Notes: a model not told the origin generated them from the letters alone. DNA of 64,000 nucleotides from an uncultured bacterium (GCA_963708045.1 OY970181.1:887566-951565), one strand, 5' to 3'. Counted from the stretch's first letter, positions 22,435 through 61,664 are shown. Made by a program: numbers and translations.

Positions 22435-22507
22435 TAACTTTTAACTGTTAACTTTTAACTATTAGTATTCGTTTACCTAAAAGTTAAAAGTTAAAACCTG
22501 AAAGTTA
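22435..22507. repeat. imperfect palindrome built of AAGTTAA/TTAACTT heptamers
   Basis: Arms 22435-22466 and 22477-22507 are reverse-complementary with a 10-nt loop. A solo arm of the same family sits at 35567-35595. Confidence 0.5.
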
Positions 22508-22508
22508 T

Positions 22509-25481
22509 TTAAAATTCCCTAAATTCGCAGATATCCTTAAAGTCGCAATTCTTGCACTTATACTCGTTAGGGTCGGCGCCAAAATCGCTTTTGCGAATTT
22601 GTTCAATACTGGATTGGATATATGTTCGCATCTTATCCAAATCTTTGTCCGTTCCCAAAAATTCCACGCTTGAGCCGTTATCCAAAAAAACAAAAATCAG
22701 TGATGATGGTTTTTTGCCAAGCACTTCAAGCGCCGCGATTTGATAAACCAACAATTGTTCTTTTTCTTCAAAACCAATGTCGTCTTCGGCTTTTGCTTTG
22801 CCAGTTTTATAGTCAACAATGCGAATCGTGCCGTCCAAAAGCTCGTCAACGCGGTCAATCGCCCCTCTAAAAGTCGCGTCACCGAATTTAAGATTGAATT
22901 TTTTTTCCAACCAAAGCGGTTTGATCGTTTGATCTTTTACTGAATCATAATATAACAACAGCTGTTTTTTCCCTTTGCCACGATATTCTTCTTTACTATT
23001 CGCATTATCAAACCATTCGTCAATCCAGCTTGCTTCATAAAGCGCGTCTAATTCTTCGCGCTTAATTAGCTCGCCCACCGTTTTTGGTTTTACTGCGCCG
23101 GCATCAAATAGACTTGTTTGCGCAGAAGCTTGCCGCTCGGCCACCGTTTCAAACATTTTCTGAAGCGCCGCGTGCATGGTTTTTCCAAAAGAAAATTGCC
23201 CCTTTCCCTTAATCGGAATCCTTAAAATGTGCGCGAACTTAAACTGCAGCGGACAGTTTTCAAAAGCCTTAAGTTGCGTGAAGGAAAAGGAATCCGAAAT
23301 TAAGGTTTTGGGTTTTGGGTTACAGGTTACAGGAGAAGGCGCAGCATTTCCCTCCCTTAAGGTAAGGGAGGGCGGGGGTGGGTTATGTTCCTTATTTGAT
23401 TTTTCTTGCGCCGTCGCGCCATATCCCAACTCAACCAAAAAGCGCGATGGTTTGCGTTTGCGCGCGCCGCCGTAATCATCGGCCGAAGTTAAAAACAAAC
23501 CTTTTTTAGCGCGAGTCATTCCAACATAAAAAAGTCGTCGCTCTTCTTCCAGGTGGTGATCGCCTTCCGGCAAAATTTCCTTAATAAGCGCGGGTGGCAG
23601 TTCAATCGCTTCGGCACGCTCACCCGAAGGAAACCGACGGTCAATCAGTGAAACCAAAAATACATAATCAAACTCCAGACCCTTAGAAGCGTGCACCGTA
23701 AGAACGCGAACCGCTTCGGGGCCAACGTCCGGATCAAAAGCCAGTCGCCCATCTTCCCCTGCCTCAAGCTGCAATTTTATCCTTTCCAAAAACAATTTAG
23801 CCGTTGGTTCTATTTCGTTCGCGACAAATTCTTCAACCACCTTCCAAAATTGATTGATATAATTTAGTGTGTCGTGATTAAGTTGGTTGTCTTCGCCGAC
23901 TAAGCGTCGTAAATAGCCAGTGTCTTCCAAAAAAGCAAAAATAACAACACGAACGTCGCTCTTTTTTGCAAGCTCGGTATGTCGCTCTATAAAACTTAAA
24001 AATTTATTAATTTTTGCGAGACCATCGGCTGTTACACCGAGCGTTGCCGCCTTGCCACAAGCCTCATAAAGCGACCAGGTGCCCTTTGCCGCGGCGTGCG
24101 TAAGCTTAACCGTGTCATCATGCGAAAGCTCAACAACTGGACCCACGAGCATCCGGTAAAGCGACGGGCTTTCGTGATAATTATCCAAAAGTTTTAAATA
24201 GTTGATAATATCCAGCACCACCGTTTTTTGATAAAGACCGCGCGAGGCGTAAAAAATATACGGAATCCCCGCCGCGGCAAGCGCCGCAATAAACGGATTA
24301 GCGCCATCGTTTGACCGTGATAAAATCGCGAATTGTGAATAATTGGTTTTGGGGTCGCTTATCAAAGTATCTTGAATTTTTTTAACCACCAACCGTGCCT
24401 CGTCGGTTATTGTTTCACCGTGCAAATGTTCAACTTTGCCCAAATCGGCATTATTCGCGTGTAATTTTTTTGACAAGCCATCACCAAGTTGCGCTTCAAG
24501 ACGATTTGGATTGTTAGCCTGAATAAATTTATAGGCCGCGTCCAAAATCGTTTGCGGCGAACGATAGTTTTCGGTAAGGATAACTTGTTTTGTCGTCGGG
24601 TAAAACTGTTTAAACTGCAAGATATTAGAAACCGACGCGCCGCGGAATTTATAAACCGACTGGTCGTCGTCGCCGACAACGGTAATATTTGCTTTGTCAC
24701 CCGCAAGCAAACGCAATAATTCAAATTGCGCAATGTTCGTGTCTTGAAACTCGTCAACGATCAAATATTTAAATTGCGAACGATATTTTTCTAAAATTGC
24801 GGGGCGAGTTTTAAAAAGACGAACAACCTCATTAATCAGATCGCCAAAGTCCATTGCTTCGTTTTCGCGCAGGAGTTGCGTATACACATGATAAGCCTCG
24901 GCCACTTCGTTAAGGCGCGTCGTCTCGTCAGTATCAGCTGGTCTGTCTTTATCTAGTTGTACGCTTTGCGCATACGCCAAATATTCAGCCGGCTGAATGA
25001 CTTCGTCTTTGGCGCGGCTAAAATGTTTTAAAAGCGCGTGAATAAACTTAGTCGGATTCCCTAACGGCTTGTAGTAATCTAATTTAAAACGATCAAGATT
25101 ATTTCTAATGAGCAACCATTGATCAGTTTCCGACAATAATTTGAAAGAATTAGGTAAGCCAATTGCAAGGCCGTGGTCACGCAAAATTCTTTCACCAAAC
25201 GCATGAAAAGTCATTACCCAAAGATCCACATAACCGTAAGGAAGCAGTTTATCTATGCGCTCTTCCATTTCACCTGCCGCTTTGTCGGTAAAAGTGACGG
25301 CCAAAATTTCATCGGTTTTAGCTTTGCCGGTTTCCACAAGATACGCCAGGCGTTTCGTTAGCACCGACGTCTTTCCCGTGCCTGCGCCAGCCACAATTAA
25401 AAGCGGACCATTATCGTGGATAATAGCCTCTTTTTGCGCCTCATTCGCACCTGCAAGTAATTTCTCGCTGGCTTCCGACAT
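22509..25481 (-). CDS. UvrD/PcrA-like superfamily-1 helicase fused to a C-terminal PD-(D/E)XK (Cas4/AddB-like) nuclease with Cys cluster
   Basis: AGAGTGKT Walker A, VDEFQDTN, helicase motifs. C-terminal IVDYKTGK...CKNCDFKDICEF. Probable start MSEASEKLL (the upstream extension overlaps the neighbouring gene). In-frame repeat/hairpin insertion at 23290-23400. Confidence 0.75.
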   Translation of the reverse strand: MSEASEKLLAGANEAQKEAIIHDNGPLLIVAGAGTGKTSVLTKRLAYLVETGKAKTDEILAVTFTDKAAGEMEERIDKLLPYGYVDLWVMTFHAFGERILRDHGLAIGLPNSFKLLSETDQWLLIRNNLDRFKLDYYKPLGNPTKFIHALLKHFSRAKDEVIQPAEYLAYAQSVQLDKDRPADTDETTRLNEVAEAYHVYTQLLRENEAMDFGDLINEVVRLFKTRPAILEKYRSQFKYLIVDEFQDTNIAQFELLRLLAGDKANITVVGDDDQSVYKFRGASVSNILQFKQFYPTTKQVILTENYRSPQTILDAAYKFIQANNPNRLEAQLGDGLSKKLHANNADLGKVEHLHGETITDEARLVVKKIQDTLISDPKTNYSQFAILSRSNDGANPFIAALAAAGIPYIFYASRGLYQKTVVLDIINYLKLLDNYHESPSLYRMLVGPVVELSHDDTVKLTHAAAKGTWSLYEACGKAATLGVTADGLAKINKFLSFIERHTELAKKSDVRVVIFAFLEDTGYLRRLVGEDNQLNHDTLNYINQFWKVVEEFVANEIEPTAKLFLERIKLQLEAGEDGRLAFDPDVGPEAVRVLTVHASKGLEFDYVFLVSLIDRRFPSGERAEAIELPPALIKEILPEGDHHLEEERRLFYVGMTRAKKGLFLTSADDYGGARKRKPSRFLVELGYGATAQEKSNKEHNPPPPSLTLREGNAAPSPVTCNPKPKTLISDSFSFTQLKAFENCPLQFKFAHILRIPIKGKGQFSFGKTMHAALQKMFETVAERQASAQTSLFDAGAVKPKTVGELIKREELDALYEASWIDEWFDNANSKEEYRGKGKKQLLLYYDSVKDQTIKPLWLEKKFNLKFGDATFRGAIDRVDELLDGTIRIVDYKTGKAKAEDDIGFEEKEQLLVYQIAALEVLGKKPSSLIFVFLDNGSSVEFLGTDKDLDKMRTYIQSSIEQIRKSDFGADPNEYKCKNCDFKDICEFREF

Positions 25482-25564
25482 AGAAGCCAGTTTACCACAC
25501 GAAACATTCAACAAAAACACCCCCGACTTTAATAGAAAGTGGGGGTGTTTTTGTTGTACTATTT

Positions 25565-29583: not shown

Positions 29584-29642
29584 ATTCACAATATTCCTGT
29601 CCGGATTAGACATTAGATATTAGGAATTAGATATTCATCGTA

Positions 29643-30851
29643 TTACAGCTCCCCGCTAAACGCCTTTTTGAGAACCGATTTCTTTAATTCTTCCAAATCC
29701 AACAATTTTTGTTTATATAACCCCTCCAGCTTTTTCGTCTGTTCCGATAAGGCGTCAAGCTTTGCAACAATCTTTTTTTGTTGGTGGAGGGATCTTGGAA
29801 ATTGAATAAACACCTCGCGTATCTCTTCCAAGTGAAGATTAGGAACCCCTACCCCTTTTAATCTTTTGTTAAACTGTTTTTTAGCCATAGGTGAATTAAT
29901 AAAATACAACAAAAAATTTGGCAGGATCGCATCTTTAGCACGAATTAACGCCAAACTTACATATATATCAAAAACTAAGTTCCTATCCACCATTGCAGCC
30001 ACTCCAGTCGTACCATTTTTAGCCAACAGGATATCACCCAAGCGAGGCGAAACCCGTTTATGCATTTTCGAGATGTTGTTTTTGGTCAATATATTTAATC
30101 TTTTCCCAATTAATTTTTCCGCTCGTAACATTTCTGAGGATAAAAAAATTATTCCACTATCATAATATGTTGGCGTTTGGTGTGTTCCGTCCGTTATTTT
30201 TTCGGAGATATCGCCCAACCGTTTCTCCTCCCACCCCTCCCCCGGATTAGAAAAGATGCTTTGCAGATACGACTCAAAAAGCTCTTTTGCATTCTGCAAA
30301 TTTTTTTCCGTATTCTTTTTAACCTTCACAATCCCCTCAAACACCTCATCCAAAATTTTTACGATCCGTTGTTGTTCGGGGAGGGGTAAAATTGGAATTT
30401 CAAAATCCTTTAAATCAGTAAATTTTAAATTATTTATATTAGCCCCACTGGAAATTTTTTCCAAATGATCTTTATAAAACGATGAGCTTAAAATATAAAA
30501 AAAATATTTTGAATCAATGCATTCTTTGGGTGTTAATTGACCCATAAATCCACCAAAGGCATATTTGTAATCACCATCAATTAGTGCAATTTTTCCAAGA
30601 TGACTTTTACTACCATTTGCAGTGCATACAATTATCGATCCTCTTCGCACCATTTTATTATCTGGAATCATTATTGTATTGCTTATATATCTCAGGTCGC
30701 TTAAATCTAACAGGCCACTATTTAGATCAATATTATTTGAGCGTAAAACAATATTATCTGAAAAATCTACCTCGTCTTTTTTAGAATAAGTTAGCCCTCT
30801 CGAAAAATCACAAACTTCGCCGAGTTTTTTTGTTTGTAAATTTATTTCCAT
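29643..30851 (-). CDS. hsdS: Type I restriction-modification specificity subunit
   Basis: Two target-recognition domains, each followed by a conserved PLPEQQRIVKILDE / coiled-coil-like motif. 402 aa. Confidence 0.8.
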   Translation of the reverse strand: MEINLQTKKLGEVCDFSRGLTYSKKDEVDFSDNIVLRSNNIDLNSGLLDLSDLRYISNTIMIPDNKMVRRGSIIVCTANGSKSHLGKIALIDGDYKYAFGGFMGQLTPKECIDSKYFFYILSSSFYKDHLEKISSGANINNLKFTDLKDFEIPILPLPEQQRIVKILDEVFEGIVKVKKNTEKNLQNAKELFESYLQSIFSNPGEGWEEKRLGDISEKITDGTHQTPTYYDSGIIFLSSEMLRAEKLIGKRLNILTKNNISKMHKRVSPRLGDILLAKNGTTGVAAMVDRNLVFDIYVSLALIRAKDAILPNFLLYFINSPMAKKQFNKRLKGVGVPNLHLEEIREVFIQFPRSLHQQKKIVAKLDALSEQTKKLEGLYKQKLLDLEELKKSVLKKAFSGEL

Positions 30852-30854: not shown

Positions 30855-31646
30855 TTATTTTAGAAAACCGACCCATTCACTATTCAGATCAAAATAATTA
30901 TATCCATTCTGTGAATCTGATTCTAAGTGGCCAATCCATTCATTATTAATATCAAAAATCATGTAGCCATTTTGTGAATGCTTAATTGCAAACTTTGTTT
31001 GTTCTGCGCTAAAGTCGAAAAACAACAACGAATTTTGTGAATTTTCAAAAATCACAAATTCGTAGGGGGTGCAGTTAAGGTCATAATTATAATAACCAAT
31101 AAAATTTGCGTTAAATCTAGGATTAATTAAATTATTAAATCTTGGATTAATAAGGTTGTTAAATCTAGGATTAATTAAATTATTAAATCTTGGATTAATA
31201 AGGTTGTTAAATCTAGGATTAATTAAATTATTAAATCTTGGATTAATAAGGTTGTTAAATCTAGGATTAATTAAATTATTAAATCTTGGATTAATAAGGT
31301 TGTTAAATCTAGGATTAATTAAATTATTAAATCTTGGATTAATAAGGTTGTTAAATCTAGGGTTTCTATTATTGCTCACTGGCGCTACATCTAAAGTTAA
31401 ATCCAGGAATACGAGAACAGGAATATTGCGACTATCGTTCGTAAAATTTATAAAAATTCTGAGTATGCCAACTTTAAAAAATTGTATTTGTCCAAATACA
31501 AAATTCAATCCTAAATAATTTGCTACACCATTAGCATCTAAAACCTTTATTTTATTAAGAACATCAACAATTATTCCTTTAGGTGTTTTATCAAGTTGAT
31601 TTAACTTATTTTCAAATTTTTCTGTTGCCAATATTTTAATATTCAT
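30855..31646 (-). CDS. repeat protein: RelE/ParE-like N-terminal fold (tentative) + ~13x NPRFNNLI octapeptide repeats + three C-terminal NGYxxFDxNxEWxG (WG-like) repeats
   Basis: Stop codon lies 3 nt from the hsdS start. N-terminal ~90 aa resemble RelE (…KFENKLNQLDKTPKGIIVDVLNKI…KVGILRIFINF…VLVFL). Encoded by perfect 48-bp DNA tandem repeats. Confidence 0.45.
   Translation of the reverse strand: MNIKILATEKFENKLNQLDKTPKGIIVDVLNKIKVLDANGVANYLGLNFVFGQIQFFKVGILRIFINFTNDSRNIPVLVFLDLTLDVAPVSNNRNPRFNNLINPRFNNLINPRFNNLINPRFNNLINPRFNNLINPRFNNLINPRFNNLINPRFNNLINPRFNNLINPRFNNLINPRFNANFIGYYNYDLNCTPYEFVIFENSQNSLLFFDFSAEQTKFAIKHSQNGYMIFDINNEWIGHLESDSQNGYNYFDLNSEWVGFLK
31110..31357. repeat. perfect tandem 48-bp (2 x 24-bp) DNA repeats, ~5 copies, in-frame within a CDS
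   Basis: GTTAAATCTAGGATTAATTAAATTATTAAATCTTGGATTAATAAGGTT repeated head-to-tail at 31110, 31158, 31206, 31254 and 31302. Confidence 0.85.
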
Positions 31647-32017: not shown

Positions 32018-32018
32018 A

Positions 32019-34190: not shown

Positions 34191-35501
34191 TTAAACCAAT
34201 CCTCGTTTTTCGGTGAGCATTTTGGAAAAACCTAGAACACGAGGATCCATAATTAAATCCGAGCGGCGGACGGGACGTTTAAGCGTAATACCATCAAGCG
34301 TTCGGCAGCGCGACAAAGCGACGTAGGATTGGCCGGCGGCAAAAGCGCCGCGACCAAGGTCAATTACAACCTTGTCAAAAGTTTTACCTTGGCTTTTGTG
34401 AATCGTTGTTGCCCAAGCCAAGCGTAAAGGAAACTGCGTAAAACTTCCGAGCGTTTCTCTTGTAATTTCGCCAGACTCGCGATCAAATTTTGTCTTTGCC
34501 TTATTCCACGTGTACGGCAAAATTTCAAAGGTTCGGCCGGTATCCAAAGTTACGTCAATGGACTCGTCTCGCACTTCTCTTACCGTCCCGAGCGTGCCGT
34601 TTACCCAACGGCCTTGATTGTCGTTATTCATTAGCATTACCCGCGCCCCGTTCTTTAGTCGTAGTTCCATTTCGGTCGGCAAATCGCGTTCTTTAAATTC
34701 GCCAACCAGCTTACCTTTGGCAACAGCGACCTTACCACTAAGACGCGCTAGATTATTTTCGTTGTGCGTATCGGCCTGAGTATTAATCGTCATTAAGTGC
34801 ATATGCTCGCCCTTGGGGTCGGAAAAATCTGGATCAAAACGCAAATTTAATTCCGCGAGTTCGGCTTCGGATATTTTCCCATCGCGAACCGCGTTTAAAA
34901 TTTTAATAAAACCTTCGTCGGTCTGCCGATATATTTTATTTAATTCAATATATTCCAAAGCGCCAAATTGCATACATTCACGAATCGCGCCCGAAGAGAA
35001 AAAGAACGGCGTGGCATACATTTTTTCCAATTCTTCAGTTTCCTCGCCGCGCACGATCGGCGGGAGCTGATGCAAGTCGCCAATCATAATAAGTTTTTTG
35101 CCGCCAAACGGCGTTTTATTTTTAAGCGCCGCGCGCAAAAATGTATCAATACAATCCATAAGGTCGGCGCGAACCATAGAAACCTCGTCAATGATTATCG
35201 TTTGCAATTTTTGAAACAGTTTATCTTTGCGCGACAAAGTACCGTCATGCTTGGCTTCTTCAAGCGAGGCGCCGGGGCGCAATTTAAAAAATGAATGAAT
35301 CGTTTGTCCATCAATGTTTACGGCGGCGACCCCGGTTGGTGCAACCACTGCCACCGCCCGTCGTGTCCGCTCCCTAAAGTAACGCAAAAGCGTGGACTTG
35401 CCCGTCCCCGCTTTTCCGGTAATAAACACGTTCTTTTCACCCTTTTCCATCACCTCGTACGCATTTCTAAATTGTTCGTTAAAATCTATCTTGTCCAGCA
35501 T
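34191..35501 (-). CDS. Pif1/RecD-like SF1B helicase
   Basis: GKAGTGKST Walker A, VVAPTGVAAVNIDGQTIHS, IIIDEVSMV, GDLHQLPPIV. These are classic Pif1 family motifs. Confidence 0.7.
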   Translation of the reverse strand: MLDKIDFNEQFRNAYEVMEKGEKNVFITGKAGTGKSTLLRYFRERTRRAVAVVAPTGVAAVNIDGQTIHSFFKLRPGASLEEAKHDGTLSRKDKLFQKLQTIIIDEVSMVRADLMDCIDTFLRAALKNKTPFGGKKLIMIGDLHQLPPIVRGEETEELEKMYATPFFFSSGAIRECMQFGALEYIELNKIYRQTDEGFIKILNAVRDGKISEAELAELNLRFDPDFSDPKGEHMHLMTINTQADTHNENNLARLSGKVAVAKGKLVGEFKERDLPTEMELRLKNGARVMLMNNDNQGRWVNGTLGTVREVRDESIDVTLDTGRTFEILPYTWNKAKTKFDRESGEITRETLGSFTQFPLRLAWATTIHKSQGKTFDKVVIDLGRGAFAAGQSYVALSRCRTLDGITLKRPVRRSDLIMDPRVLGFSKMLTEKRGLV

Positions 35502-35527
35502 AAGTTAATTAAAGCACACAAACACCC

Positions 35528-35570
35528 CTCACCCCAACCCCTCTCCCATTCTTGGGCGAGGGTGATAAAA
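35528..35570 (-). terminator. putative intrinsic terminator after ygjP-like gene (GC hairpin + U-rich tract on minus strand)
   Basis: Minus-sense CACCCTCGCCC-aagaat-GGGAGAGGG followed by GTGTTTGTGTGCTTT. Confidence 0.3.
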
Positions 35571-35573
35571 AAG

Positions 35574-36653: not shown

Positions 36654-38057
<1,404 letters not shown>

Positions 38058-46662: not shown

Positions 46663-49379
46663 CTACTTTCCGTGACATTTCTTATATTTTTTCCCTGATC
46701 CGCAAGGACACAAGTCGTTGCGGCCGATTTTTTCTTCGTTTTCAATTGAAGTCGCCGCTTCTTTAGCCACGCCACCCTCATTTGTTATTTGGTCAGAAGT
46801 TTTGGCCGGAGCGGTGACGGTGATTCCGCGCCGGTCAAAAAGCGATTGCTGGTTTTGCGAAGCGGCAAAGCCAACTTTAAAAACCGTACCGGCAACCTGT
46901 TTGTCTATCGCAAGCAAAAGTTCGCCAAACATTCTAAATGCTTCGCGCTTATATTCAACAAGCGGATCGCGCTGGCCATAACCACGCAGGCCAATTCCGG
47001 CGCGCAGGTGGTCAATGTTGTCCAAGTGCTCAATCCACATCTGGTCAATTGAGCGAAGCATTACCGCTTGTTCAACCTTGGCAAGCATTTCCTTGTCGGT
47101 AAATTGTTTTTTAAGCGTTTCACGAACCGCCGTGGCGATTTCAATTAAATATTTAATCATCGCGTCGCGCGCTTCAACGTCACCAAGTTTTCCGCCCGAA
47201 CCGGCGGCATCGGCAAATTCTTTAAGCTTAGCTTCGGCGTCCGATGGCAACGGAAAAATCGTGCGAATATCTTTGTCAATTTCGGTAAAATTCCACGCTT
47301 TACGGTCATCACCGGCAGTGTGAAATTGAATGATGCGTTTTATTTCCCGTTCTGCCGAAGCCATTACAAGCTCAGCCGTATCGCTCGCGTGCAAGATTTC
47401 CGCACGGCGGCGATAAACTGTTTCGCGGTGCTTGTTTAAAACATCATCGTAATCCAGTAAGTGTTTACGAATATCAAAGTTGTGTCCTTCAACTTTTCCT
47501 TGCGCGCTTTCAATCGCTTTTGACACCATTCCGTGCTCTATTGGCATATCGTCGGGAAGTCCCAAACGATTAAGCATTGCTTTCATTCTATCAGTCGCAA
47601 AAATACGCATTAGGTCGTCGTCAAGCGACACAAAAAATTGCGTGGATCCTGGATCGCCTTGACGACCGGCGCGACCGCGCAACTGATTGTCTATGCGCCG
47701 CGATTCATGGCGCTCGGTGCCGATGACATGAAGTCCGCCCGCCGCGCGAACTTTTTCCGCTTCTTCGGGCTTGGCGGATTACCACCAAGAATAATGTCCA
47801 CACCGCGGCCAGCCATATTGGTCGCGAGTGTTACCGCGCCGGCGCGACCAGCTTGGGCAACAAATTCTGCTTCGCGTTCGTGGTTTTTGGCGTTCAAAAT
47901 ATTGTGTTTAATTCCTTCGCGTTCAAGCAAGGCCGAAAGGGCTTCGTTTTTTTCAATGGAAATCGTACCCAAAAGAACCGGTTGGCCTTTGGCCACGCGT
48001 TCTTTTATGTCCGCGACCACGGCGTTAAATTTTGCCGCTTCATTTTTGTAGATCCGATCCTGAAGATCTTTTCTTACGATCGGCTTATTGGTCGGCACGG
48101 TGACGACTTCTAATTTATAAATTTTAAAGAATTCCTCAGCTTCGGTTGCCGCCGTTCCGGTCATTCCGGCGAGCTTAGGATACATTCGGAAAAGATTTTG
48201 AAAAGTAATCGTCGCAAGCGTTTGCGATTCGCGTTGAATTTTTACATTTTCTTTTGCTTCAATCGCTTGGTGCAAACCTTCAGAATAGCGGCGTCCGTGC
48301 ATCAGCCGGCCGGTAAATTCGTCAACGATAATTACTTCACCGTTCGTGACAACGTAATTCTTGTCCAACTTATAAAGCGTGTGCGCTTTAAGCGCGGAGT
48401 CCAAGTGAAAAATCGTTTTAGAATCGTTTTCCTTCCACGGATCGCGATTAAGTTCGGCGGCAAGGTGAACCGCGCCTTCGTCAGTAAAAGTTGCCGAATG
48501 CATTTTTTCGTCAACGACGTAATCTTTTTCCGGAATCAAACGGCGGATGGTTTTCGCGTATTCGTAATACATCTGCGTCGCCTCTTCGGCCGGCGCGGAA
48601 ATAATCAGCGGCGTGCGCGCTTCGTCAATCAAAATTGAGTCAACTTCGTCAATGACCGCAAAATTTGGCGGACGTTGAACCATTCGTTCCAGATCGGGCA
48701 CCATATTGTCGCGCAAATAATCAAAACCAAATTCATTATTCGTGCCATACGTTATGTCCGCGGCATACGCTTCGCGTCTGGAGCACGGTCGCAAAAAAGA
48801 ATATTCAATACGGAACGAACCAGTGAGGTCGCGCTTTGCATCTTCTTCGCCGCCTTCGGTATTCTTTTCGCTTGCCTTAAAATCAGGATCGTAAAGATAC
48901 GACGTTTCGTGGTTAACGATACCAACAGAAAGTCCAAGCGCGCGATATATTTGTCCCATCCACGTCGCATCGCGGCGCGCGAGATAATCATTGACCGTCA
49001 CCAAATGAACGCCTTTTCCCGAAAGTGCGTTTAGGTAAATCGGTGCCGTCGCGACCAAAGTTTTTCCTTCACCAGTTCGCATTTCCGCAACCGCGCCAGA
49101 GTGCAAAATCATTCCACCAATAAGCTGAACGTCATAGTGGCGCTGATGAAGCGTCCGCTTGCCAGCTTCGCGAACGCAAGCAAACGCTTCCGGCAATAAT
49201 ATATCAAGTGTTTCGCCGTTCTTAAGGCGTTCACGAAATTCAACGGTTTTTCCACTAAGTTCCTCGTCGGACAAAGCGCTAATTTTTTCTTCAAGCGCAT
49301 TAATCTTAACAATCTCAGGCTGGAATTTTTTTACCGCCCGCGCGTTAGTGTCGCCAAAAATTTTTGTAATTATGGACAT
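46663..49379 (-). CDS. secA: preprotein translocase SecA, interrupted by an apparent 1-nt frameshift (~47766)
   Basis: N-part 47691..49379 ends ...[13 protein letters not shown] then out-of-frame junk. C-part frame reads ...[43 protein letters not shown]... to C-terminal [15 protein letters not shown] zinc finger. Restoring one G in the GG run at 47766-47767 fuses them. Confidence 0.8.
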
Positions 49380-49576
49380 AATTTTAAGAAAAACGGGCGG
49401 TTAAAAATTAGAAACCCATTTTAAGACTTTATATGAAAAACCAATTTTTATCAAGATTAAACAAGTTCGGGTTCGCGAATCTCAACATCTCAAACAGGCT
49501 CCGAGATTTCTCACCCTGGACAAAACAACCAGACGGGCTCGGAATGACGCCGTGAGAATTAATTTTATAAATTAAG

Positions 49577-49605
49577 ATCGGGTCAGCCGTGTGGCCGACC
49601 CGATA
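49577..49605 (-). terminator. hairpin immediately after RT stop codon (possible terminator)
   Basis: Minus-sense ATCGGGTCGGCC-acac-GGCTGACCCGAT (12-bp stem incl. one G-U) followed by CTTAATTTATAAAATT. Confidence 0.35.
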
Positions 49606-49606
49606 A

Positions 49607-50410
49607 TTAAGAACTCTTCTGCGGAACTCGTCCCTCGGCAACAGCAAGCCGATACAAACGATAAGGTTCTACAAGCGACGGCGGTAGTCCCCCACGGTAC
49701 ACATTGCGCACCCATCCCAAATTTCCCTCCACTTCCGACTGGCTACGCTCCCCCTGACAAGCGCGGTTAAGCATAGCTCGATAACGACGAATCTTTTTCC
49801 GCGACAAGCGAACCCCATCGGTGCGATAGGCGCGACCTTTTCGTAAAGCAAAAAGGGGCGAACCAATAGAAAGACCAGTGACTTCAACCGAACCATTGTC
49901 AATTGATCGACGCTTGCATTTGTCCCAAGCAAGACGAAAACCGCATTCCTGGATAATCGTCCTGATTTTGGCGATTGACTCACCAATCTCGGAACTATCA
50001 TCTCCAGAAAAACAAAGATCATCTACGTAACGAGTAAACCTGATTCCAGAAGAAAGCTCGCGCTTTAGCCGCACATCCATTTCCCGACAAGCAAGATTAA
50101 AAAGAACCGGTGAAGTCAGCGCACCCTGCGGTATTGCCCCGCGATAACTAACGAGCTTCACCAGAATCTTAATCACCGACGGCGCAAAATTCATTTCGGA
50201 AAAAATTTTACGAAGCCGCCTTTCGGTCACTTGCCCAAACGCGTCGCGCAAGTCGCAAAAGTAAAAGTATCTTCCATTGCGATGCTTAAGCGCGTTTGAG
50301 AACGGCGAATGTCCGCGAACACAACCATGAACTATCCGAAGCAGACGATCGCGACCGCGCAAGTATCTGTAATGTTGATCAAGAAGGACGCGCAAACGAT
50401 TTTGAACCAA
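49607..50410 (-). CDS. reverse transcriptase, retron-type (NAxxH and VTG motifs); N-terminus interrupted by in-frame TAA
   Basis: HGCVRGHSPFSNALKH (motif 2 with NAxxH), YFYFCDLRDAFGQV (motif A), IPQGALTSPVLFNL (motif B), RYVDDLCFSG (YxDD), SVEVTGLSIG (VTG). In-frame upstream ...GRTPKKNGGYRKHFSPPPEIRLVQNRL is RT motif 1, but a TAA (50488-50490) separates it from a GGAGG-preceded ATG (50554-50556, MENGISLGVLCSVLGLSLEVIQ*). GC-rich. Confidence 0.7.
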   Translation of the reverse strand: MVQNRLRVLLDQHYRYLRGRDRLLRIVHGCVRGHSPFSNALKHRNGRYFYFCDLRDAFGQVTERRLRKIFSEMNFAPSVIKILVKLVSYRGAIPQGALTSPVLFNLACREMDVRLKRELSSGIRFTRYVDDLCFSGDDSSEIGESIAKIRTIIQECGFRLAWDKCKRRSIDNGSVEVTGLSIGSPLFALRKGRAYRTDGVRLSRKKIRRYRAMLNRACQGERSQSEVEGNLGWVRNVYRGGLPPSLVEPYRLYRLAVAEGRVPQKSS

Positions 50411-50993
50411 GCGAATTTCCGGCGGCGGCGAAAAGTGCTTTCTATACCCGCCGTTCTTTTTCGGCGTCCGACCAAGACGATATTTTTCGCTAACCGCAAG
50501 TGCTTACTGAATTACCTCCAATGAAAGCCCCAAAACGGAGCAGAGAACACCAAGGCTTATTCCGTTTTCCATTGCCCCTCCCGTGTACAATTGTAAAGAG
50601 CGTTGAAAAGAAACGAGGGAACGAACCCGACGGCTCGCTCCCCCTCATAACAGCGCGACATTGAAGCACGCGGCCTTAACTCGTGCCCAAGCAAAACCCC
50701 AAAGCGACACTATTGCCGTAAGCAGCTTGAAGGCTGCATACCAGTGGCCGCGGGGCGCGTGGCACACGCGACAAGGCTACCCGCCAGAATTGCAGCAAGA
50801 GCAAGAGTTTGTGTTCAGTTGAACGTCTCCGCCTTGATGCGTTTTGAGCACGGCGCAACACCGCACCCTTGGCTAATTCGCTTGGCGCCGCCAGGTGCGA
50901 ACAAAGCCAATCCGATTACCGGCCTTTTGCCGATTGACGGAATTTACCGCTGTATGATAGTCCCTGGTAACTAAACCAACGGGGCATACCAAA

Positions 50994-51022
50994 AAACTAT
51001 GTGCTTTTCGCATTTTTGTCAA
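50994..51022 (-). promoter_or_regulatory. putative promoter TTGACA-N17-TAGTTT driving the RT-associated non-coding region
   Basis: Located right after the terminator of the upstream gene, at the 5' edge of the GC-rich island. Confidence 0.3.
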
Positions 51023-51026
51023 GACT

Positions 51027-51056
51027 AAAACAAAACCTCCCGAAGGAGGTTTTGTT
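51027..51056 (-). terminator. intrinsic terminator of the 51087..51587 gene
   Basis: AACAAAACCTCC-cgaa-GGAGGTTTTGTT perfect 12-bp stem running into a U tract on the minus strand. Confidence 0.6.
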
Positions 51057-51086
51057 GATATGTTTTTAAATTATTGCTAAGAAATA

Positions 51087-51587
51087 TCAACTAAATTTTT
51101 TTTGCAAACTTCTCTCTTCTTCCTCAAACCTTTCTACTATGTCTTTATGCCCTCTTCTTTTTAGCTCGTTTTTTATTATTTCCGCAGATCTTTTTAACAT
51201 TAATAATTGATCGTAATGTTCATTGGCTTCGTTCCTGTAATCTTGAACCTCCCCGAATTTATTTCTTCCTGCTTGATCAATTTTGTCGCCACTTTCATCT
51301 AAATCAATCAGCATAGCATCAAATAATTTAGGTCTTAAGCGCGACCCACTAACAAATCCATGGTAACCGTCTACCAAATCTTTTAGAGGCAATGTCTTGA
51401 GATATTCAATCTTATCTTTCCAAATTTTAAGTTTTTCCCACTGCCGATCCGTTTCTTTTTCATTTCCTTCGTAGAAGAAGAATTTTTGAGATACAGACTC
51501 AACTAGATCTTGTTCCTCTTTCTCCTGAACATGCTCCACGTTAGCTTCGGAAGGTACAAATTTTTCATTTTCTGACATAAAAACCAT
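51087..51587 (-). CDS. hypothetical acidic protein
   Basis: 166 aa, AT-rich like host. Separated from the RT island by its own terminator. Confidence 0.3.
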   Translation of the reverse strand: MVFMSENEKFVPSEANVEHVQEKEEQDLVESVSQKFFFYEGNEKETDRQWEKLKIWKDKIEYLKTLPLKDLVDGYHGFVSGSRLRPKLFDAMLIDLDESGDKIDQAGRNKFGEVQDYRNEANEHYDQLLMLKRSAEIIKNELKRRGHKDIVERFEEEERSLQKKFS

Positions 51588-51611
51588 TTTAGAAAAATAG
51601 TAACAATTTAT

Positions 51612-51983
51612 TTAAACCAATTCCGTCTCTGTCCCCGCCTCTTTGGCTGTTCTACTGCCAGAACGGCGAACGTCTATTTTTTCGGCTTTTCGTTTGGTAA
51701 TTTCGCGTTTTAATTCATCCTTAGCAAGATCAATCGCTTTATAAAGTTCGGTGGCCGCGGTTTCAACCCTAATTAGCGTTCCTTTTAATTTAAGATTGGC
51801 GACGACTTCAAAAATCTCGCCTTTTTTGTGGTGGTTGCTTGATTTAAAAACTTCAACGCGCACCTCTACCGGACCGCCGGAATTTTGGAGATATTTATCA
51901 AGACCGCCGATTTTCTTTTCCACACCAGCAATAATCGCATCGGTTAGTTTAAGATCTTTTGAAGAGATGTCTATTTTAAGCAT
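51612..51983 (-). CDS. hpf: ribosome hibernation promoting factor / RaiA family
   Basis: MLKIDISSKDLKLTDAIIAGVEKKIGGLDKYL... beta-alpha-beta-beta-beta-alpha pattern of the sigma-54 modulation protein family. Confidence 0.7.
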   Translation of the reverse strand: MLKIDISSKDLKLTDAIIAGVEKKIGGLDKYLQNSGGPVEVRVEVFKSSNHHKKGEIFEVVANLKLKGTLIRVETAATELYKAIDLAKDELKREITKRKAEKIDVRRSGSRTAKEAGTETELV

Positions 51984-52088
51984 ATCTTTGTTTATGAATC
52001 ATGAAACACGCAACATGAAACATTTTAACCCCCGCAAAACGGGAGCGGATATGCTTCGTGTTTCATGCTTCATGCTTCATGCTTCATG
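51984..52088. repeat. imperfect palindrome built of CATGAAA/CATGAAG heptamers with GC hairpin core
   Basis: TGAATCATGAAACACGCAACATGAAAC ... GTGTTTCATGCTTCATGCTTCATGCTTCATG flanking CCCCCGCaaaacGGGAGCGG. Confidence 0.5.
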
Positions 52089-53042
52089 TCAAAATCCCAC
52101 GTACTGAATTTCCTCGTGCAAACTAATTCCATACTCGTCCGACACTTTCATTTTAGCATAAGCAATGAGTTCGCGCACTTCCGCGGCGGTCGCGCCACCT
52201 GCGTTTACGAAAAAGTTTGCGTGTTGCTCCGAAATCTGCGCGCCGCCGATTTTTTTTCCTTTTAGACCAAGTGATTCAACGAGCCAAGCGGCTGGAATTT
52301 TTTTCCAAGCAAAATATTCTGGCGGCATTTTTTCTTTAACCCGATCCGACAATTCGTCGGTTGAAGAAAATTCAAAATTCTTAAAAACACAACCAGCGCT
52401 TCCTACCCCTGCCGGATTGGCAACATTTCTCTTTGCGACAATCTCGTCCATTCTTGCGATAAGCGCTGTTCGGTCGCCCGGACGCAAAGAAAAAGTAGCT
52501 CCTAATATTAGATACGGTTCTTTTTTAAAAATAGATCCACGATAAGCAAAGCAGCATTCGTTTTTATTAAGGCTGACCAAACGATTGTCGCGTAAATCAA
52601 TTACTTGAACATTTAAGACGGCGTCACCCATCGCCGCTCCATACCCGCCAGCATTACCGCGAAGCGCCCCGCCAACCGTGCCCGGAAGTCCTGCTGACCA
52701 TTCCAAACCAGCCAAACCAGCTTCGGCGGTAAGTCGCGCCAAAAGTGCCGAGATCGCGCCAGCTTCGGCATAAATTTTTTCCGTGTTAATTTCAATTTTG
52801 CGAAGCGCCGGCACAATCGTTAGTCCACGAATTCCGTCGTCGGAAACAAGAATATTGCTTCCCCCGCCAAGAATAAAAACTGGCAAACCGTCTTCGTTTG
52901 CGGCGGCAAGCGCCGCCTTAATTTCGTCCGCGGTTTTAGCTTCAAAATAAAAATCAGCGAAGCCGCCGATGCGGTAGGTTGTGTGATTGCTCAAAAGTTC
53001 TTTTGTTTTCAACCGATCTCCAAATATTTCTTGTAACTTCAT
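52089..53042 (-). CDS. murB: UDP-N-acetylenolpyruvoylglucosamine reductase
   Basis: FAD-binding PCMH domain: NHTTYRIGGFADFY...ILGGGSNILVSD. C-terminal MurB domain. Confidence 0.8.
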   Translation of the reverse strand: MKLQEIFGDRLKTKELLSNHTTYRIGGFADFYFEAKTADEIKAALAAANEDGLPVFILGGGSNILVSDDGIRGLTIVPALRKIEINTEKIYAEAGAISALLARLTAEAGLAGLEWSAGLPGTVGGALRGNAGGYGAAMGDAVLNVQVIDLRDNRLVSLNKNECCFAYRGSIFKKEPYLILGATFSLRPGDRTALIARMDEIVAKRNVANPAGVGSAGCVFKNFEFSSTDELSDRVKEKMPPEYFAWKKIPAAWLVESLGLKGKKIGGAQISEQHANFFVNAGGATAAEVRELIAYAKMKVSDEYGISLHEEIQYVGF

Positions 53043-53082
53043 GAATATCTAATATCTAATGTCTAATGTCTAATCCGATGGA

Positions 53083-54123
53083 TTAAAGAGTTTTATCAAG
53101 TAGTGCGATTGCGAGACCTAGTACTGCGGCGGCGGTGCTAATAATCCAGGCGCGCATTACTACCTTTTGTTCTGGCCAACCTTTGGCTTCAAAATGATGG
53201 TGCAGGGGCGTTGAAAGAAAAATCTTTTTTTTGCGGAACTTTTTTGAACAAAGTTGAACAATGACGGAAAGCGATTCTAAAACAAAAACAAAACCAATGA
53301 TGAGCAGAAGCAATTCTTGGTTAAGAAGAAACGCAATTACCGCAAGCGTTATCCCAAGCGACATTGCGCCGGTGTCGCCCATAAAAAACCGTGCCGGGTT
53401 AACGTTGAACCAAAGAAAAGCTAACGTCGCACCACAAACTACGGCGCAGAAACTGGCAATGTCGTATTTGCCGCCCGCAAAAGCAATCGCGCCAAAGGCA
53501 GCAAAGGCGCTTGCGAGCGTCCCGCCAGCCAAACCATCCAGACCATCGGTTTCGTTAACAGAAAAAGAGGTTGCGACAACAACCAAAATAAAAAATGGAA
53601 TAAACAACCAACCAATTGCAATGTCACCAAAAAAAGGCACATGAACAAAATTCCAGCCTAGTTTAAAATAAAACCACCAGGCGCCAACCGCGGAAACAAG
53701 CGTGTAGAGAATTAAACGATGACGCATCCGGAGACCGCCGCCCTTAGGACCAATCCGTCGCACATTCCAATAATCATCAACAATACCAATTATCGCCGCC
53801 GCAACAAGAGTAAAAAGCGGCAACCAAGTTTCTCGGCGAGAAAGAAAAGTCAGGTTGTTAAAAAAGCCGCCCCAGATTTGTGCAACAAGGGCGAAGACAA
53901 TTGCAAAAATAAGCGTCGTTCCCCAAATAATCACCCCGCCCATAGTTGGTGTTCCCGCTTTTTTGGCATGAAGAGCAACCATAATCGGCGCGCTCGCGGC
54001 ATCGCGAATGGATTTACCCATTTTGTAACGATAAAGAAAACCCGACCAAAGCGGGGTGATAAGAACGGCAAAAACAAATGAAAGAATGGTTAAGAAAAAA
54101 ATTCTAATAACATTCGCATCCAT
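53083..54123 (-). CDS. mraY: phospho-N-acetylmuramoyl-pentapeptide transferase
   Basis: 10-TM. ...NVDGLDGLAGG... and GDTGAMSLG signature motifs. Confidence 0.85.
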   Translation of the reverse strand: MDANVIRIFFLTILSFVFAVLITPLWSGFLYRYKMGKSIRDAASAPIMVALHAKKAGTPTMGGVIIWGTTLIFAIVFALVAQIWGGFFNNLTFLSRRETWLPLFTLVAAAIIGIVDDYWNVRRIGPKGGGLRMRHRLILYTLVSAVGAWWFYFKLGWNFVHVPFFGDIAIGWLFIPFFILVVVATSFSVNETDGLDGLAGGTLASAFAAFGAIAFAGGKYDIASFCAVVCGATLAFLWFNVNPARFFMGDTGAMSLGITLAVIAFLLNQELLLLIIGFVFVLESLSVIVQLCSKKFRKKKIFLSTPLHHHFEAKGWPEQKVVMRAWIISTAAAVLGLAIALLDKTL

Positions 54124-54128
54124 AGTGA

Positions 54129-54584
54129 TCAGCTTTTTAAATTAATAAGAATAAGGTATCCCCCAGCGACCAAGCACATCGCTTCAAGAAACAATGTGAG
54201 GCTGGCAAGAAGCAAAGCTGGACCGCGACTTTTTACCGCGACCAATCGTGAAAGAATGGAATTGACCAAAAAAACAACGGTCGCGATTATCGGCACGACC
54301 AAAACCATCCGCGCCGAACCAACATCGTCCAAGCCAAGGTAAATACTATAATGCAATCCGATAATCTTGTTTTGAATAATCAATTGCCAAAAACGAACTA
54401 AAATAAACAGCCAAATAAGGACATTTAATATGGCCGAGACGAGAAAAACCGTTTTAATTTGCCGGTCGGAAAGAAGTGGTCCGAACCAGCCTTTTATCCT
54501 TAAAAACATAGGATATAAGCATATCGGTTTTTGCTCCACCTGTCCACGCTCTTGACGAAAACAAATAAAAACGATAGTATCCAC
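54129..54584 (-). CDS. hypothetical membrane protein
   Basis: Three to four TM segments. Start uncertain (possibly MFLRIKG). Confidence 0.3.
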   Translation of the reverse strand: MDTIVFICFRQERGQVEQKPICLYPMFLRIKGWFGPLLSDRQIKTVFLVSAILNVLIWLFILVRFWQLIIQNKIIGLHYSIYLGLDDVGSARMVLVVPIIATVVFLVNSILSRLVAVKSRGPALLLASLTLFLEAMCLVAGGYLILINLKS

Positions 54585-54603
54585 AACATAAACATAATCC
54601 CTT

Positions 54604-54882
54604 ATGGCTCATAAAAAAGCAGGCGGCTCAACTAGTTACGGCCGAGATTCACAGCCAAAATATCTCGGCGTTAAGCGCTCCGACGGCTCGGTTGTAAAAA
54701 CCGGCGAAGTTTTGGTGCGCCAACGCGGTACCAAGTGGCACCCGGGGAAAAATGTCGGACGCGGAACGGACGACACCCTTTTTGCCTTGGCCGACGGTTT
54801 GGTTAAATTTTCCAACCGTAAAGTCGCGCGATACTCTGGAAGACTTGATTCGCGGACGTTCGTAAGTGTAACTGCCAAATAA
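54604..54882 (+). CDS. rpmA: 50S ribosomal protein L27
   Basis: [25 protein letters not shown]...GTKWHPG. Confidence 0.9.
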
Positions 54883-55066
54883 AACAAAAAACATCCTCCG
54901 CTTTAGCGGAGGATTTTTTTTATAATTTTATACAGATGGCGCAAAAAAATTTATTCTTTCCCGAAACGGTTTAATCTCTATAAAAAACAGGGTTTGATTT
55001 TAAAAATACAAACATCAACACAAACTTTTGAGGGGAAGAATTAATTTTTTTGCGCCAAAAGGTAAT

Positions 55067-60604: not shown

Positions 60605-60653
60605 TTTTGCAAACAAAAAATTTCTCCTTTTACGGAGAAATTTTTTTATCTAA

Positions 60654-61490
60654 CTAACTTTTAATATATTCGTCCAGCGCCTCTTCCCAATTTCTAAGCT
60701 GAGGCAATTTTGTGTTCAGAAGCATTCCGTAGCGCGGGCGCGGCGCGGCAAGCGGCTCGTCGCGGCGGGCAATGGCGGTGACTTCGGCTTTAAGCCCAGC
60801 CAGTTCAATCGCTTTGGCCGCAAGCTGATACCAAGTCGCGACGCCCGAGTTTACAATATGATAAATGCCGTACGGTTTTTTGTTTTCAACAATTTCACGC
60901 ACCGCCTTGGCCACGTCGGGCGCATACGTTGGCGAGGCGACTTCGTCGTGCACCGCCGATACGCGACCGTCGCCCTGCGCTTTTCTTACGACTTCGTCAA
61001 TAAAACTTTCCTTGGCGTTTTCCGAAGTCCCTGGAAAACCAAAAAGCCGCGAGGTTCTAATGAGATATGTTTTGGTATTGTCTTCAAGCGCAAATTTTTC
61101 TGATCGTTCTTTGGCCTCACCAAAAACCGAAAGCGGTTCGGTTTTTTCCGATTCTTTATTGCCAGCGCTCCCCCGTCCGGAAAAAACATGCTCCGAAGAA
61201 AAGTGCACCAGTGTCATTCCCATAATATCGGCAATGTCCGCGAGCGAAGCAAGGGGCATAGCGTTATTAATCATCGCGCGGTCAGGTTCAGCCTCTGCGG
61301 CATCAATATCGTTCCAGCCAGCCGCGTTTATAATGACGTCAATGTCCGAAGTAAGCGTTTTAGCGATTGACTCGGACGAGGAAATATCAAATTCGTCGCG
61401 GCTAAGCGCCACGACTTCGTGTTTTCCGGTAAATTCATTAACAAGCGCGCTCCCAAGCATTCCTTTTGCGCCTAAGATCACTACTTTCAT
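60654..61490 (-). CDS. rfbD: dTDP-4-dehydrorhamnose reductase (RmlD) / NAD-dependent epimerase family
   Basis: MKVVILGAKGMLGSAL Rossmann start. ...NAAGWNDID...LVHFSSEHVF... RmlD-like. Confidence 0.7.
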   Translation of the reverse strand: MKVVILGAKGMLGSALVNEFTGKHEVVALSRDEFDISSSESIAKTLTSDIDVIINAAGWNDIDAAEAEPDRAMINNAMPLASLADIADIMGMTLVHFSSEHVFSGRGSAGNKESEKTEPLSVFGEAKERSEKFALEDNTKTYLIRTSRLFGFPGTSENAKESFIDEVVRKAQGDGRVSAVHDEVASPTYAPDVAKAVREIVENKKPYGIYHIVNSGVATWYQLAAKAIELAGLKAEVTAIARRDEPLAAPRPRYGMLLNTKLPQLRNWEEALDEYIKS

Positions 61491-61664
61491 AAAAGAAACT
61501 CTAACAAAAATTCCTACTTTAATCAAGAGTTTAAACTAGGGTTTAGGGTTTAGAGGTTAGGGGTTAGTACTTTTCCTATAGACAATGCCAAAAAAATAAA
61601 TGCGGCCTAAAGTCTCGTGACTCCAAGCCGCATATTAAGTGACGTTAGCTAGTCCGTTGACTAG

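Follow-up and report, generated by a model that had tools for sequence, protein, structure and literature searches.

Heptanucleotide repeat arrays in the operon spacers of an uncultured bacterium and their association with S23p genes

Why should the few spacers of a gene-dense bacterial genome be occupied by tandem units of seven nucleotides, some of them mirrored across the same spacer? We addressed this question in a stretch of 64,000 nucleotides from an uncultured bacterium (GCA_963708045.1, OY970181.1:887566-951565; hereafter the window), in which a first-pass annotation had described imperfect palindromes built from heptamers in short intergenic spacers. The pattern is real and non-random, and it is a variant of known repeat classes with a testable link to an orphan protein family, S23p (PF05635, 23S rRNA-intervening sequence protein). 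An S23p gene, missed at first pass, lies within one of the palindromes, and S23p genes elsewhere are often likewise flanked by inverted heptamer arrays. By analogy with the intervening sequences (IVSs) of 23S rRNA, we infer, as the best-supported reading, that the IVS-like stems in operon spacers may undergo processing of the RNase III type.

Period-7 arrays and their arrangement in the window

Arrays were detected with Tandem Repeats Finder and with our own period scan (score ≥10), and the expectation by chance was taken from thirty first-order Markov simulations. The window contains 13 period-7 arrays, no other period from 4 to 12 has more than one, and simulated sequences held 0.47 on average and 2 at most (n=30). 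Chance is excluded as the origin of these arrays. The motifs thus exceed the expectation from base composition, and a period-7 array is present at every position that the first-pass annotation had listed; two arrays (38065-38089 and 23304-23333) and a degenerate hairpin (41653-41730) had gone unlisted. Of the 13, ten lie mainly in intergenic sequence, which makes up just 9% of the window (coding fraction 91%, typical spacers 5-80 nt). An inverted partner within 130 nt accompanies 5 of 12 arrays and none of the shuffled arrays, so the earlier statement that most copies pair with their reverse complement was too broad. Head-to-tail units of 7 nt, mainly intergenic, place the window in the class of heptanucleotide tandem repeats known as long simple sequence repeats (SSRs) or short tandemly repeated repetitive (STRR) sequences.

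The nearest AtpG relatives in a species-level genome collection are metagenome-assembled genomes (MAGs) of Patescibacteria, also called the candidate phyla radiation (CPR), with 37-45% identity and, in one partial match (L025), 67%. We compared the window with 80 loci chosen via atpG, mostly from Patescibacteria (1.27 Mb, 13.5% intergenic), a selection blind to S23p. These loci hold 50 period-7 arrays, 36 of them intergenic. Other periods gave 3-28 arrays, with periods 6 and 9 mostly coding and period 8 represented by 16. Inverted partners were found for 12 of 46 arrays, compared with 1 for shuffled arrays. In the closest relative, L025, the atpA-atpG spacer carries two units, TTCGCAA/TTCGGCA, where the window has two of CCTAAAC, and the atpB-atpE spacer is a palindrome of AATATTA heptamers where the window has a degenerate ATTAGAN-related copy. 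As its orthologous spacers contain heptamers with other units, the array state appears to be conserved or regenerated while the sequence turns over. In a further locus, L015, atpG is bracketed by inverted heptamer-rich arrays of ~65 nt in both adjacent spacers (~2240-2320 and ~3260-3340), a pair that could form a long-range stem around the whole atpG cistron.

Five spacers of the window (4672-4770, 5020-5112, 22433-22508, 36577-36653 and 51984-52088) form hairpins whose arms are heptamer arrays (Table 1). Their stems measure 23-35 bp, with z-scores from -5.7 to -8.1, and none of 200 shuffles per spacer folded as well; the proposal of a family of structured spacer elements is upheld for them. 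Each hairpin fills its spacer, reaching from the preceding gene's stop codon nearly as far as the following ATG, the 3' arm ending 1 nt short of the ATG at 22433-22508 and, C-rich, 3 nt short of the atpC ATG at 36577-36653. The hairpin at 51984-52088 has a GC-rich inner hairpin and a variant CACG unit mirrored in both arms. The loop at 36577-36653 contains the 12-mer TTAGTAAAACAC (36610-36621, minus strand), which forms the hairpin apex and is found a single time in the window and a single time across the 168 loci retrieved. That second occurrence (L008, 7813-7824) is again a hairpin apex in the orthologous atpD-atpC spacer, with different arms, in a Paceibacteria MAG whose AtpG is 40% identical.

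Canonical terminators, with a GC stem followed by a T run, close strings of genes in the window (for example, 43640-43674). The heptamer hairpins were rejected as intrinsic terminators because no T run follows them: a terminator scan of the sense strand over 35000-54900 flagged none of them, and for the three lying outside that range (4672-4770, 5020-5112 and 22433-22508) the absence of a T run was judged by reading the spacers. A Rfam scan of the whole window returned 0 matches at gathering thresholds, including no rRNA, and the elements therefore correspond to no curated RNA family.

It might instead be the DNA that folds, with G-quadruplexes or i-motifs in GGGTTAG arrays and cruciforms in inverted pairs acting on transcription, replication or recombination, as proposed for the GGGNATC repeats of Xanthomonas and Nostoc (Rehm et al. 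2015, PMC4692102). As in that study, the G-rich strand of GGGTTAG is the template strand just upstream of open reading frames (ORFs), and folding in the window and at S23p loci lacks strand asymmetry (see below), which is compatible with structure at the DNA level. However, just one of about five families is G-rich, the AT-rich ATTAGAN and AAGTTAA arrays are incapable of forming a quadruplex, and no copy has four tracts of at least three G (three at 36580-36603 and 61537-61567, two at 46296-46330). With at most three such tracts in any GGGTTAG copy, membership of the G-quadruplex repeat class was rejected, and we regard a role through non-B DNA as very improbable. The likeness of GGTTTAG to telomeric repeats, remarked on at first pass, is coincidental.

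The remaining arrays are solo. They comprise 2-5 units and have essentially no structure, folding no better than their shuffles (minimum free energy (MFE) 0 to -3 kcal/mol), and most of them adjoin a start codon. Because over half of all arrays are solo and unstructured, with an MFE of ~0, the term palindrome suits the hairpins and fails for the class as a whole. In the array at 13753-13779, the first unit contains the alr ATG and the array codes for MIQDSRFK, in agreement with the observation that this repeat, recorded as GAATCNT, extends into the alr N terminus. The array at 23304-23333 falls in the linker between the UvrD_C and PD-(D/E)XK domains. Three of the four GGTTTAG copies adjoin a start codon on its 5' side, as had been claimed for all of them; the exception is 61537-61567, where the adjacent start is a TTG and a likelier in-frame ATG (61490) is 47 nt off. 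A promoter reading of the arrays was set aside, a single weak sigma-70-like match (9 of 12) having been found inside an array.

The frequent contact with start codons raises the possibility that arrays serve as leaders for translation initiation, or are bound by an RNA-binding regulator such as S1, a cold-shock protein or a CsrA-like protein, in a genome without Shine-Dalgarno sequences. Such a role was proposed for the TAACTGA repeats of Beggiatoaceae, which have the same position and the same scarcity of ribosome-binding sites (MacGregor 2015, PMC4679880). A strong Shine-Dalgarno-like motif is present in only 2 of 65 window genes, whose leaders are A/T-rich and G-poor, and arrays abut starts at 53043-53082, 38952-38968, 36577-36603, 46292-46332 and 22433-22464. 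Solo arrays are, moreover, less structured than their shuffles (z +1.4 to +1.9). Against this, the units differ between families and share no common motif, making one sequence-specific binder unlikely, and the ATTAGAN family lies upstream of genes in both orientations. In hairpins the ATG-adjacent arm is base-paired, which should hinder initiation, and stop codons have arrays just as often, 31 of 80 S23p genes being flanked on both sides (see below). Leaders or regulator sites are, in our judgement, an improbable explanation.

The units had also been described as locus-specific, but distant copies align in register. All ten ATTAGAN arms align gap-free in their core, keep the order of the variant units (GAGATTA GAAATTA GAGATTA GATTTTA) and have the common inner end GAAG(N)CG. 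Two nearly identical 35-mers, solo copies found at 29600-29645 and 53043-53082, face opposite ways, also relative to the genes. The copies of GGTTTAG have a common inner end, TTAGTA, and those of AAGTTAA show 79% identity per column. By these alignments, the arrays are dispersed block copies (20-35 nt, 3-5 units) of a few families and not independent expansions. The ATTAGAN repeat, reported at 3504-5105, is indeed found there, not as a continuous tract but as blocks at 3509-3535, 3620-3663, 4037-4077, 4677-4757 and 5030-5105, in four spacers separated by three genes. Every spacer of the adjoining cassette of lexA, an 82-aa ORF and a Y-family polymerase gene (IMS; 4078-6333, plus strand) is an ATTAGAN element, and the S23p element is directly upstream of lexA.

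S23p genes and their flanking heptamer arrays

The S23p element of the window occupies the spacer between an M23 peptidase gene and lexA. The last five codons of the S23p ORF and its stop lie inside the right arm, and the slightly longer stretches that contain the two arms, when joined (3606-3663 + 4030-4077), fold with 38 bp at -31.5 kcal/mol. Among solved structures, the nearest match is 2GSC (XCC0516 of Xanthomonas campestris, itself an S23p protein; E 2.7e-18). S23p forms a pentameric four-helix bundle homologous to Avd, the accessory protein of diversity-generating retroelements (DGRs). A DGR reading of the window gene was rejected, as the sole reverse transcriptase (49607-50410) is retron-type and 45 kb away, with no template/variable repeat pair. 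Homology links the arms of the S23p element with those of the hairpins at 4672-4770 and 5020-5112, and the first of these hairpins has the same inner ends (GAAGCCG...CGACTTC) as the element. On this basis the ORF-less hairpins look like the S23p element without its ORF.

Dispersed intergenic copies of 30-35 nt within operons, solo or as inverted pairs, resemble repetitive extragenic palindromes (REPs) and bacterial interspersed mosaic elements (BIMEs), and the elements might be either of these, or classical miniature transposable elements with inverted repeats (MITEs), mobilised by a REP-associated tyrosine transposase (RAYT) or another transposase. The first-pass suggestion of REP/MITE-like repeats survives in its MITE half: the arms are homologous and dispersed, they form terminal inverted repeats, and ORF-less copies stand beside one with an ORF. 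The REP half does not, given that the units are non-palindromic and that no RAYT-type gene is present among the 63 window ORFs scanned with Pfam (a few small ORFs were left out). Single copies consist of tandem repeats and lack a palindrome, the same 63 ORFs gave no Y1/RAYT or other transposase domain, and target-site duplications were not apparent on reading the hairpin flanks, no systematic search having been made. Mobilisation as a REP, BIME or classical MITE is barely plausible.

The atpG-chosen Patescibacteria loci contain five S23p homologues, and upstream and downstream flanks pair in all five, with heptamer arms that are clear in L053, L052 and L002 and less clear in L027 and L012. In L053 and L027 the atpG-atpD spacer holds the cassette; in L002 the atpD-atpC spacer does, and there its arms are of the ATCGTGT family, as in an ORF-less hairpin of the atpA-atpG spacer of that locus. 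Since the atpD-atpC spacer of the window holds an ORF-less hairpin and that of L002 holds S23p, the gene can be present or absent in orthologous spacers.

We then analysed 80 metagenomic S23p loci (416 kb, GC 0.30-0.66) from a scan that used a 6-sequence alignment, a 12-sequence alignment having been set aside as too divergent; an array was counted if it lay within 120 nt of the ORF ends. Period-7 arrays were found in 61 of the 80 loci (upstream in 47, downstream in 45 and on both sides in 31), and periods 5, 6 and 8-11 in at most 11. Among other genes of the same loci, 30 of 191 had arrays at either end and 4 of 191 at both ends (Fisher p = 2e-21 and 6e-15, respectively, versus S23p). In total, 99 of 184 arrays sit in the 5% of sequence adjoining S23p (binomial p = 1e-76). 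Two-sided arrays were inverted in 28 cases and direct in 3, and the median arm length was 29 nt. S23p runs in the same direction as the adjacent upstream gene in 57 of 64 cases, and the downstream gene shares its direction in 47 of 62, at median gaps of 49 and 42 nt, and no rRNA was present in the first 40 loci.

Arms were G-rich 5' of S23p and C-rich 3' of it, and this consistent polarity shows that ORF and arms form one oriented unit; it could also reflect a purine-rich ribosome-binding function. Synteny between the metagenomic loci and the window, sought as a sign of insertion polymorphism, was found in none, including L096, which has CATGAAR-like arms.

Plasmids yielded 32 S23p records by tblastn, mostly from heterocystous cyanobacteria, the classical carriers of heptamer repeats. 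All eight plasmid records examined, from Nostoc, Geminocystis, Pseudanabaena, Calothrix, Picosynechococcus, Riemerella and Azospirillum, have heptamer arrays on at least one side of S23p. The copy on plasmid AZO_p2 of Azospirillum lipoferum (L088) lies inside a 23S rRNA gene, with heptamer arms GAGGACG/GATGACA, and is a true IVS. Two of the cyanobacterial cassettes with heptamer arms sit in CRISPR-Cas operons, at cas6/cas4 in Pseudanabaena (L084) and at cas10/cmr3 in Picosynechococcus (L086); the arrays of L084 are direct, not inverted ((AAAAGCT)x14 and (AAAAGCC)x10).

The association between S23p and inverted heptamer arrays is therefore specific and cross-phylum. A supplementary table of Rehm et al. 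2015 lists XCC0516 with a four-unit GGGAATC array over its start codon, and those authors drew no connection between repeats and S23p (PMC4692102). In the full-text literature, subscription-only articles excluded, we found no paper linking PF05635 to heptamer repeats beyond the description of the Coxiella IVS, and none on heptamer repeats in Patescibacteria. The occurrence in a CPR lineage, the coexistence of block-copied families and the general PF05635-heptamer link appear to be new, and the rRNA IVS appears to be a special case of that link.

Could such arrays be by-products of mutation, arising because replication slippage favours 7-nt steps (the long SSRs of Mrazek et al. 2007, via PMC4679880), serving no function and persisting in spacers alone because units of 7 nt disrupt reading frames? 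Heptanucleotides are the commonest long SSR class in many bacteria, and copy number in Coxiella differs between strains (PMC4990558). Some loci have long perfect arrays ((AAAAGCT)x14 in L084, long runs in L108 and L154), the orthologous spacers of relatives hold arrays with other units, and the sole intragenic array in the window has a length divisible by three. Yet slippage alone leaves unexplained the matched inverted arms (z down to -8), the kept order of variant units among distant copies and, at S23p ends, the 17-fold enrichment, the 28:3 predominance of inverted pairs and the fixed G-rich/C-rich polarity. Frame disruption would, in addition, equally allow periods of 4, 5, 8, 10 and 11, yet these are rare. 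A purely neutral origin is thus unlikely. Provision of stops in all three frames was also rejected as the reason for a 7-nt unit, stop codons being no more frequent in units upstream of S23p than in shuffled ones (0.52 versus 0.53); the excess of stops in downstream units arises because the ORF's own stop lies in the array.

A further possibility is that arrays are binding sites for S23p itself, which would act in trans on heptamer nucleic acid genome-wide and be autoregulated via its own flanks. Avd binds nucleic acid, and the homology to Avd of S23p, a pentameric four-helix bundle, speaks for this role, as do the tight, specific linkage of S23p genes to heptamer arrays across phyla and the raised background of arrays at other genes in S23p-carrying genomes (16% of controls). 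However, units vary between loci and within the window, yet the window has one S23p gene, and the Coxiella protein is probably not made (PMC4990558). We consider this role distinctly unlikely.

Table 1 Heptamer arrays, hairpins and the S23p element in the window
Feature	Coordinates	Strand	Setting and properties
Solo ATTAGAN arm	3509-3535	+	Directly past M23 peptidase stop; aligns in register with other arms, including inner end AAAGAAGCAC
S23p element, left (5') arm	3620-3663	+	GATGTTA GAGATTT GAAATTA GATTTTA GAAGCCG; ends 6 nt before S23p ATG
S23p gene	3664-4053	+	129 aa; PF05635, 23S rRNA-intervening sequence protein; Pfam E 1.6e-36
S23p element, right (3') arm, inverted ATTAGAN	4037-4077	+	TCTAAAA TCTAATC TCTAATT TCTAATC; ends 1 nt before lexA ATG
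ORF-less ATTAGAN hairpin	4672-4770	+	lexA/82-aa ORF spacer; 31-bp stem; MFE -32.0 kcal/mol, z -5.66, 0/200 shuffles
Second ORF-less ATTAGAN hairpin	5020-5112	+	82-aa ORF/Y-family polymerase spacer; 34-bp stem; MFE -33.9 kcal/mol, z -8.09
GATTCAN x4 (sense strand)	13753-13779	-	Against serS stop codon (13780-13782); alr and serS assigned by Pfam
AAGTTAA hairpin	22433-22508	-	Spacer between AddA-like helicase gene and next ORF; 27-bp stem; MFE -21.4 kcal/mol, z -6.04
Intragenic GGTTTTG x2 + GGTTACA x2	23304-23333	-	30 nt, in frame, in AddA-like helicase-nuclease gene
Solo ATTAGAY	29605-29640	+	Between hsdS and DUF3800 gene; MFE 0
AAAAGTT x3.7, perfect	35569-35594	-	Overlaps last codons and stop of YgjP-like gene
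GGGTTAG hairpin	36577-36653	-	atpD-atpC spacer; MFE -22.4 kcal/mol, z -6.13
Solo ATTTACA x3.6 (38065-38089)	38052-38093	-	atpG-atpD spacer; unstructured
Two CCTAAAC units (sense strand)	38952-38968	-	Entire 17-nt atpA-atpG spacer
Degenerate ATTAGAN-related copy, weak hairpin	41653-41730	-	atpB-atpE spacer; z -1.46
Solo GGKTTAG x4-5 (CTAACCN on sense strand)	46292-46332	-	Upstream of DUF3467 gene; unstructured
CATGAAR hairpin	51984-52088	-	murB-hpf spacer; 35-bp stem; MFE -42.6 kcal/mol, z -5.76
Solo ATTAGAY x4.4	53043-53082	-	Fills mraY-murB spacer, ends at murB ATG; MFE -0.4 kcal/mol
Solo GGGTTAG x4.4	61537-61567	-	Upstream of rmlD-like gene, downstream of terminator-like hairpin

IVS-like stems as candidate RNase III substrates

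With moderate confidence, we propose that the elements are IVS-like stems, with or without an S23p ORF, that reside in operon spacers, probably serve as RNase III substrates, are copied between spacers and are resized by slippage. They would be co-transcribed with the host operon in a long polycistronic RNA, in which a long stem (≥23 bp) would present a double-stranded substrate to RNase III, as in true IVSs. If so, the polycistronic RNA would be cut, or structurally segmented, at its spacers, and processing of the stems may segment or stabilise the transcript. Whole arms would spread by copying or recombination between spacers, and the number of units would change by slipped-strand mispairing. 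ORF-less hairpins and solo arms would then be non-autonomous or decayed derivatives, the solo arms being half-elements.

RNase III needs ~20 bp, a length that the stems of the window (23-35 bp) reach. The 23S rRNA IVSs of Leptospira, Coxiella burnetii and Brucella share with the window element the inverted arms, the long stem and a PF05635 gene in the loop, and they resemble the elements of the window in their tandem heptamer arms, in the existence of ORF-less versions and in co-orientation with the host transcript. A parallel to the arms comes from the Coxiella IVS, in whose stem three tandem GACAGAT heptamers immediately precede the S23p ATG; the first of them is where RNase III cleaves, and their copy number varies between strains (PMC4990558). 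The idea of RNA processing gains indirect support from this architecture, by analogy only. In contrast to 23S rRNA IVSs, the window element lies between protein-coding genes, as do at least the first 40 metagenomic loci, the window elements are set in long strings of co-directional genes, and many solo arms have no partner; because they are outside rRNA, the window elements are not IVSs in the strict sense.

Several observations weigh against this proposal. Cleavage of the stems is argued from analogy only, and no RNase III gene was seen among the 63 window ORFs scanned with Pfam. Sense and antisense folding do not differ consistently: results for the window hairpins go both ways, and a Wilcoxon test on 50 S23p flank pairs with strong pairing gave p = 0.29. 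In the absence of such asymmetry, a role at the DNA level, or no role, stays compatible with the data; as a test for RNA selection based on G-U asymmetry, the comparison was uninformative. Seven of the 12 window arrays are solo and so unable to form a stem. The window has one S23p gene, which covers one of about five families, and the status of derivative of the S23p element is shown for the ATTAGAN family only. As to spread, no mobility enzyme was identified among the same 63 ORFs, S23p is, to our knowledge, not a known transposase, and reading of the hairpin flanks, short of a systematic search, brought no target-site duplications to light.

Comparison with other spacer repeats places the window elements near several systems. 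REP/BIME elements and the RNase III hairpins of phage T7 early mRNA are transcribed structures in operon spacers that affect mRNA processing or stability. REP units are palindromic and RAYT-dependent and the T7 sites are not repeats, and we know of neither being built from heptamers or associated with S23p. Long SSR/STRR sequences have the same head-to-tail 7-nt intergenic units, many copies per genome and a sporadic phylogenetic distribution (Mrazek et al. 2007 via PMC4679880; Calothrix via PMC4692102). Unlike these, the window arrays belong to a CPR genome, fall into several unrelated families, are short (3-5 units) and are block-copied with unit order kept. The GGGNATC repeats of Xanthomonas and Nostoc also lie between co-oriented ORFs, within 50 bp of a start or stop; ~4 units are preferred, and each Xanthomonas genome has 70-75 convergent (inverted) pairs (PMC4692102). 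Most window families are, in contrast, AT-rich and without the capacity to form a quadruplex. The TAACTGA repeats of marine Beggiatoaceae, cyanobacteria and Bacteroidetes occupy start-proximal spacers without canonical ribosome-binding sites, as 2-6 direct copies a few nucleotides upstream of start codons (MacGregor 2015, PMC4679880). That system uses a single unit genome-wide, with one indirect repeat in 170 sets, whereas the window has several units and frequent inverted pairs.

A broader view can be offered tentatively. S23p with its inverted heptamer arrays may be one widespread, unrecognised element present in CPR bacteria, cyanobacteria, Bacteroidota and Proteobacteria, of which the rRNA IVS would be a special case. 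ORF-less hairpins and solo arrays, among them the Nostoc STRR sequences and the Xanthomonas GGGAATC repeats, would either derive from it as non-autonomous forms or be targets for its protein, and S23p, an Avd-like pentamer, would be the factor that recognises, maintains or spreads the repeats. We consider this possible, and short of probable.

Gene setting and implications

The minus strand carries most genes of the window. They include the ATP synthase operon, secA, murB, mraY, mreBC, alr, several aminoacyl-tRNA synthetase genes, pyrG, the lexA-dinB cassette and a type I restriction-modification locus; a tRNA scan of the window found none. The same AtpG protein is present on a contig of more than 1 Mb, and on contigs from the same strain, or one nearly identical to it, spacers have the lengths seen in the window.

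Three further features were recorded. The secA gene (46663-49379, minus strand) is split into two ORFs by a frameshift upstream of ~47760, and the conserved motif falls in the downstream ORF's frame; the split reflects either misassembly at a homopolymer run or a pseudogene. Within the type I restriction-modification locus, the ORF at 30855-31646 (minus strand) has eleven perfect copies of NPRFNNLI at 31110-31361, encoded by a 24/48-nt tandem repeat (Tandem Repeats Finder score 504) in an island of 30% GC, and it has no Pfam or PADLOC match. The retron-type reverse transcriptase gene (49607-50410, minus strand; 267 aa; Pfam RVT_1 1.6e-17, PADLOC RT_II-A 2.2e-37) is preceded by ~680 nt of GC-rich sequence with no convincing ORF (50411-51086), which could hold an msr/msd RNA; the region gave no Rfam match and no DGR-type repeat pair.

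For annotation, the arrays carry a warning, in that start and stop codons beside them can fall inside the repeat. Bacterial heptanucleotide repeats, described in Calothrix and Nostoc and then in Xanthomonas, Burkholderia, Geobacter and Beggiatoaceae, have been a puzzle for about 30 years, with no agreed origin or function. The S23p family has been one for about as long: its structure is solved, it is widespread and homologous to Avd, and it has no known function. The association of S23p with heptamers joins the two puzzles and, if true genome-wide, would provide a concrete experimental handle on both. It also suggests how ultra-compact CPR genomes, with their long co-directional strings of genes and almost no Shine-Dalgarno sequences, could punctuate their transcripts.

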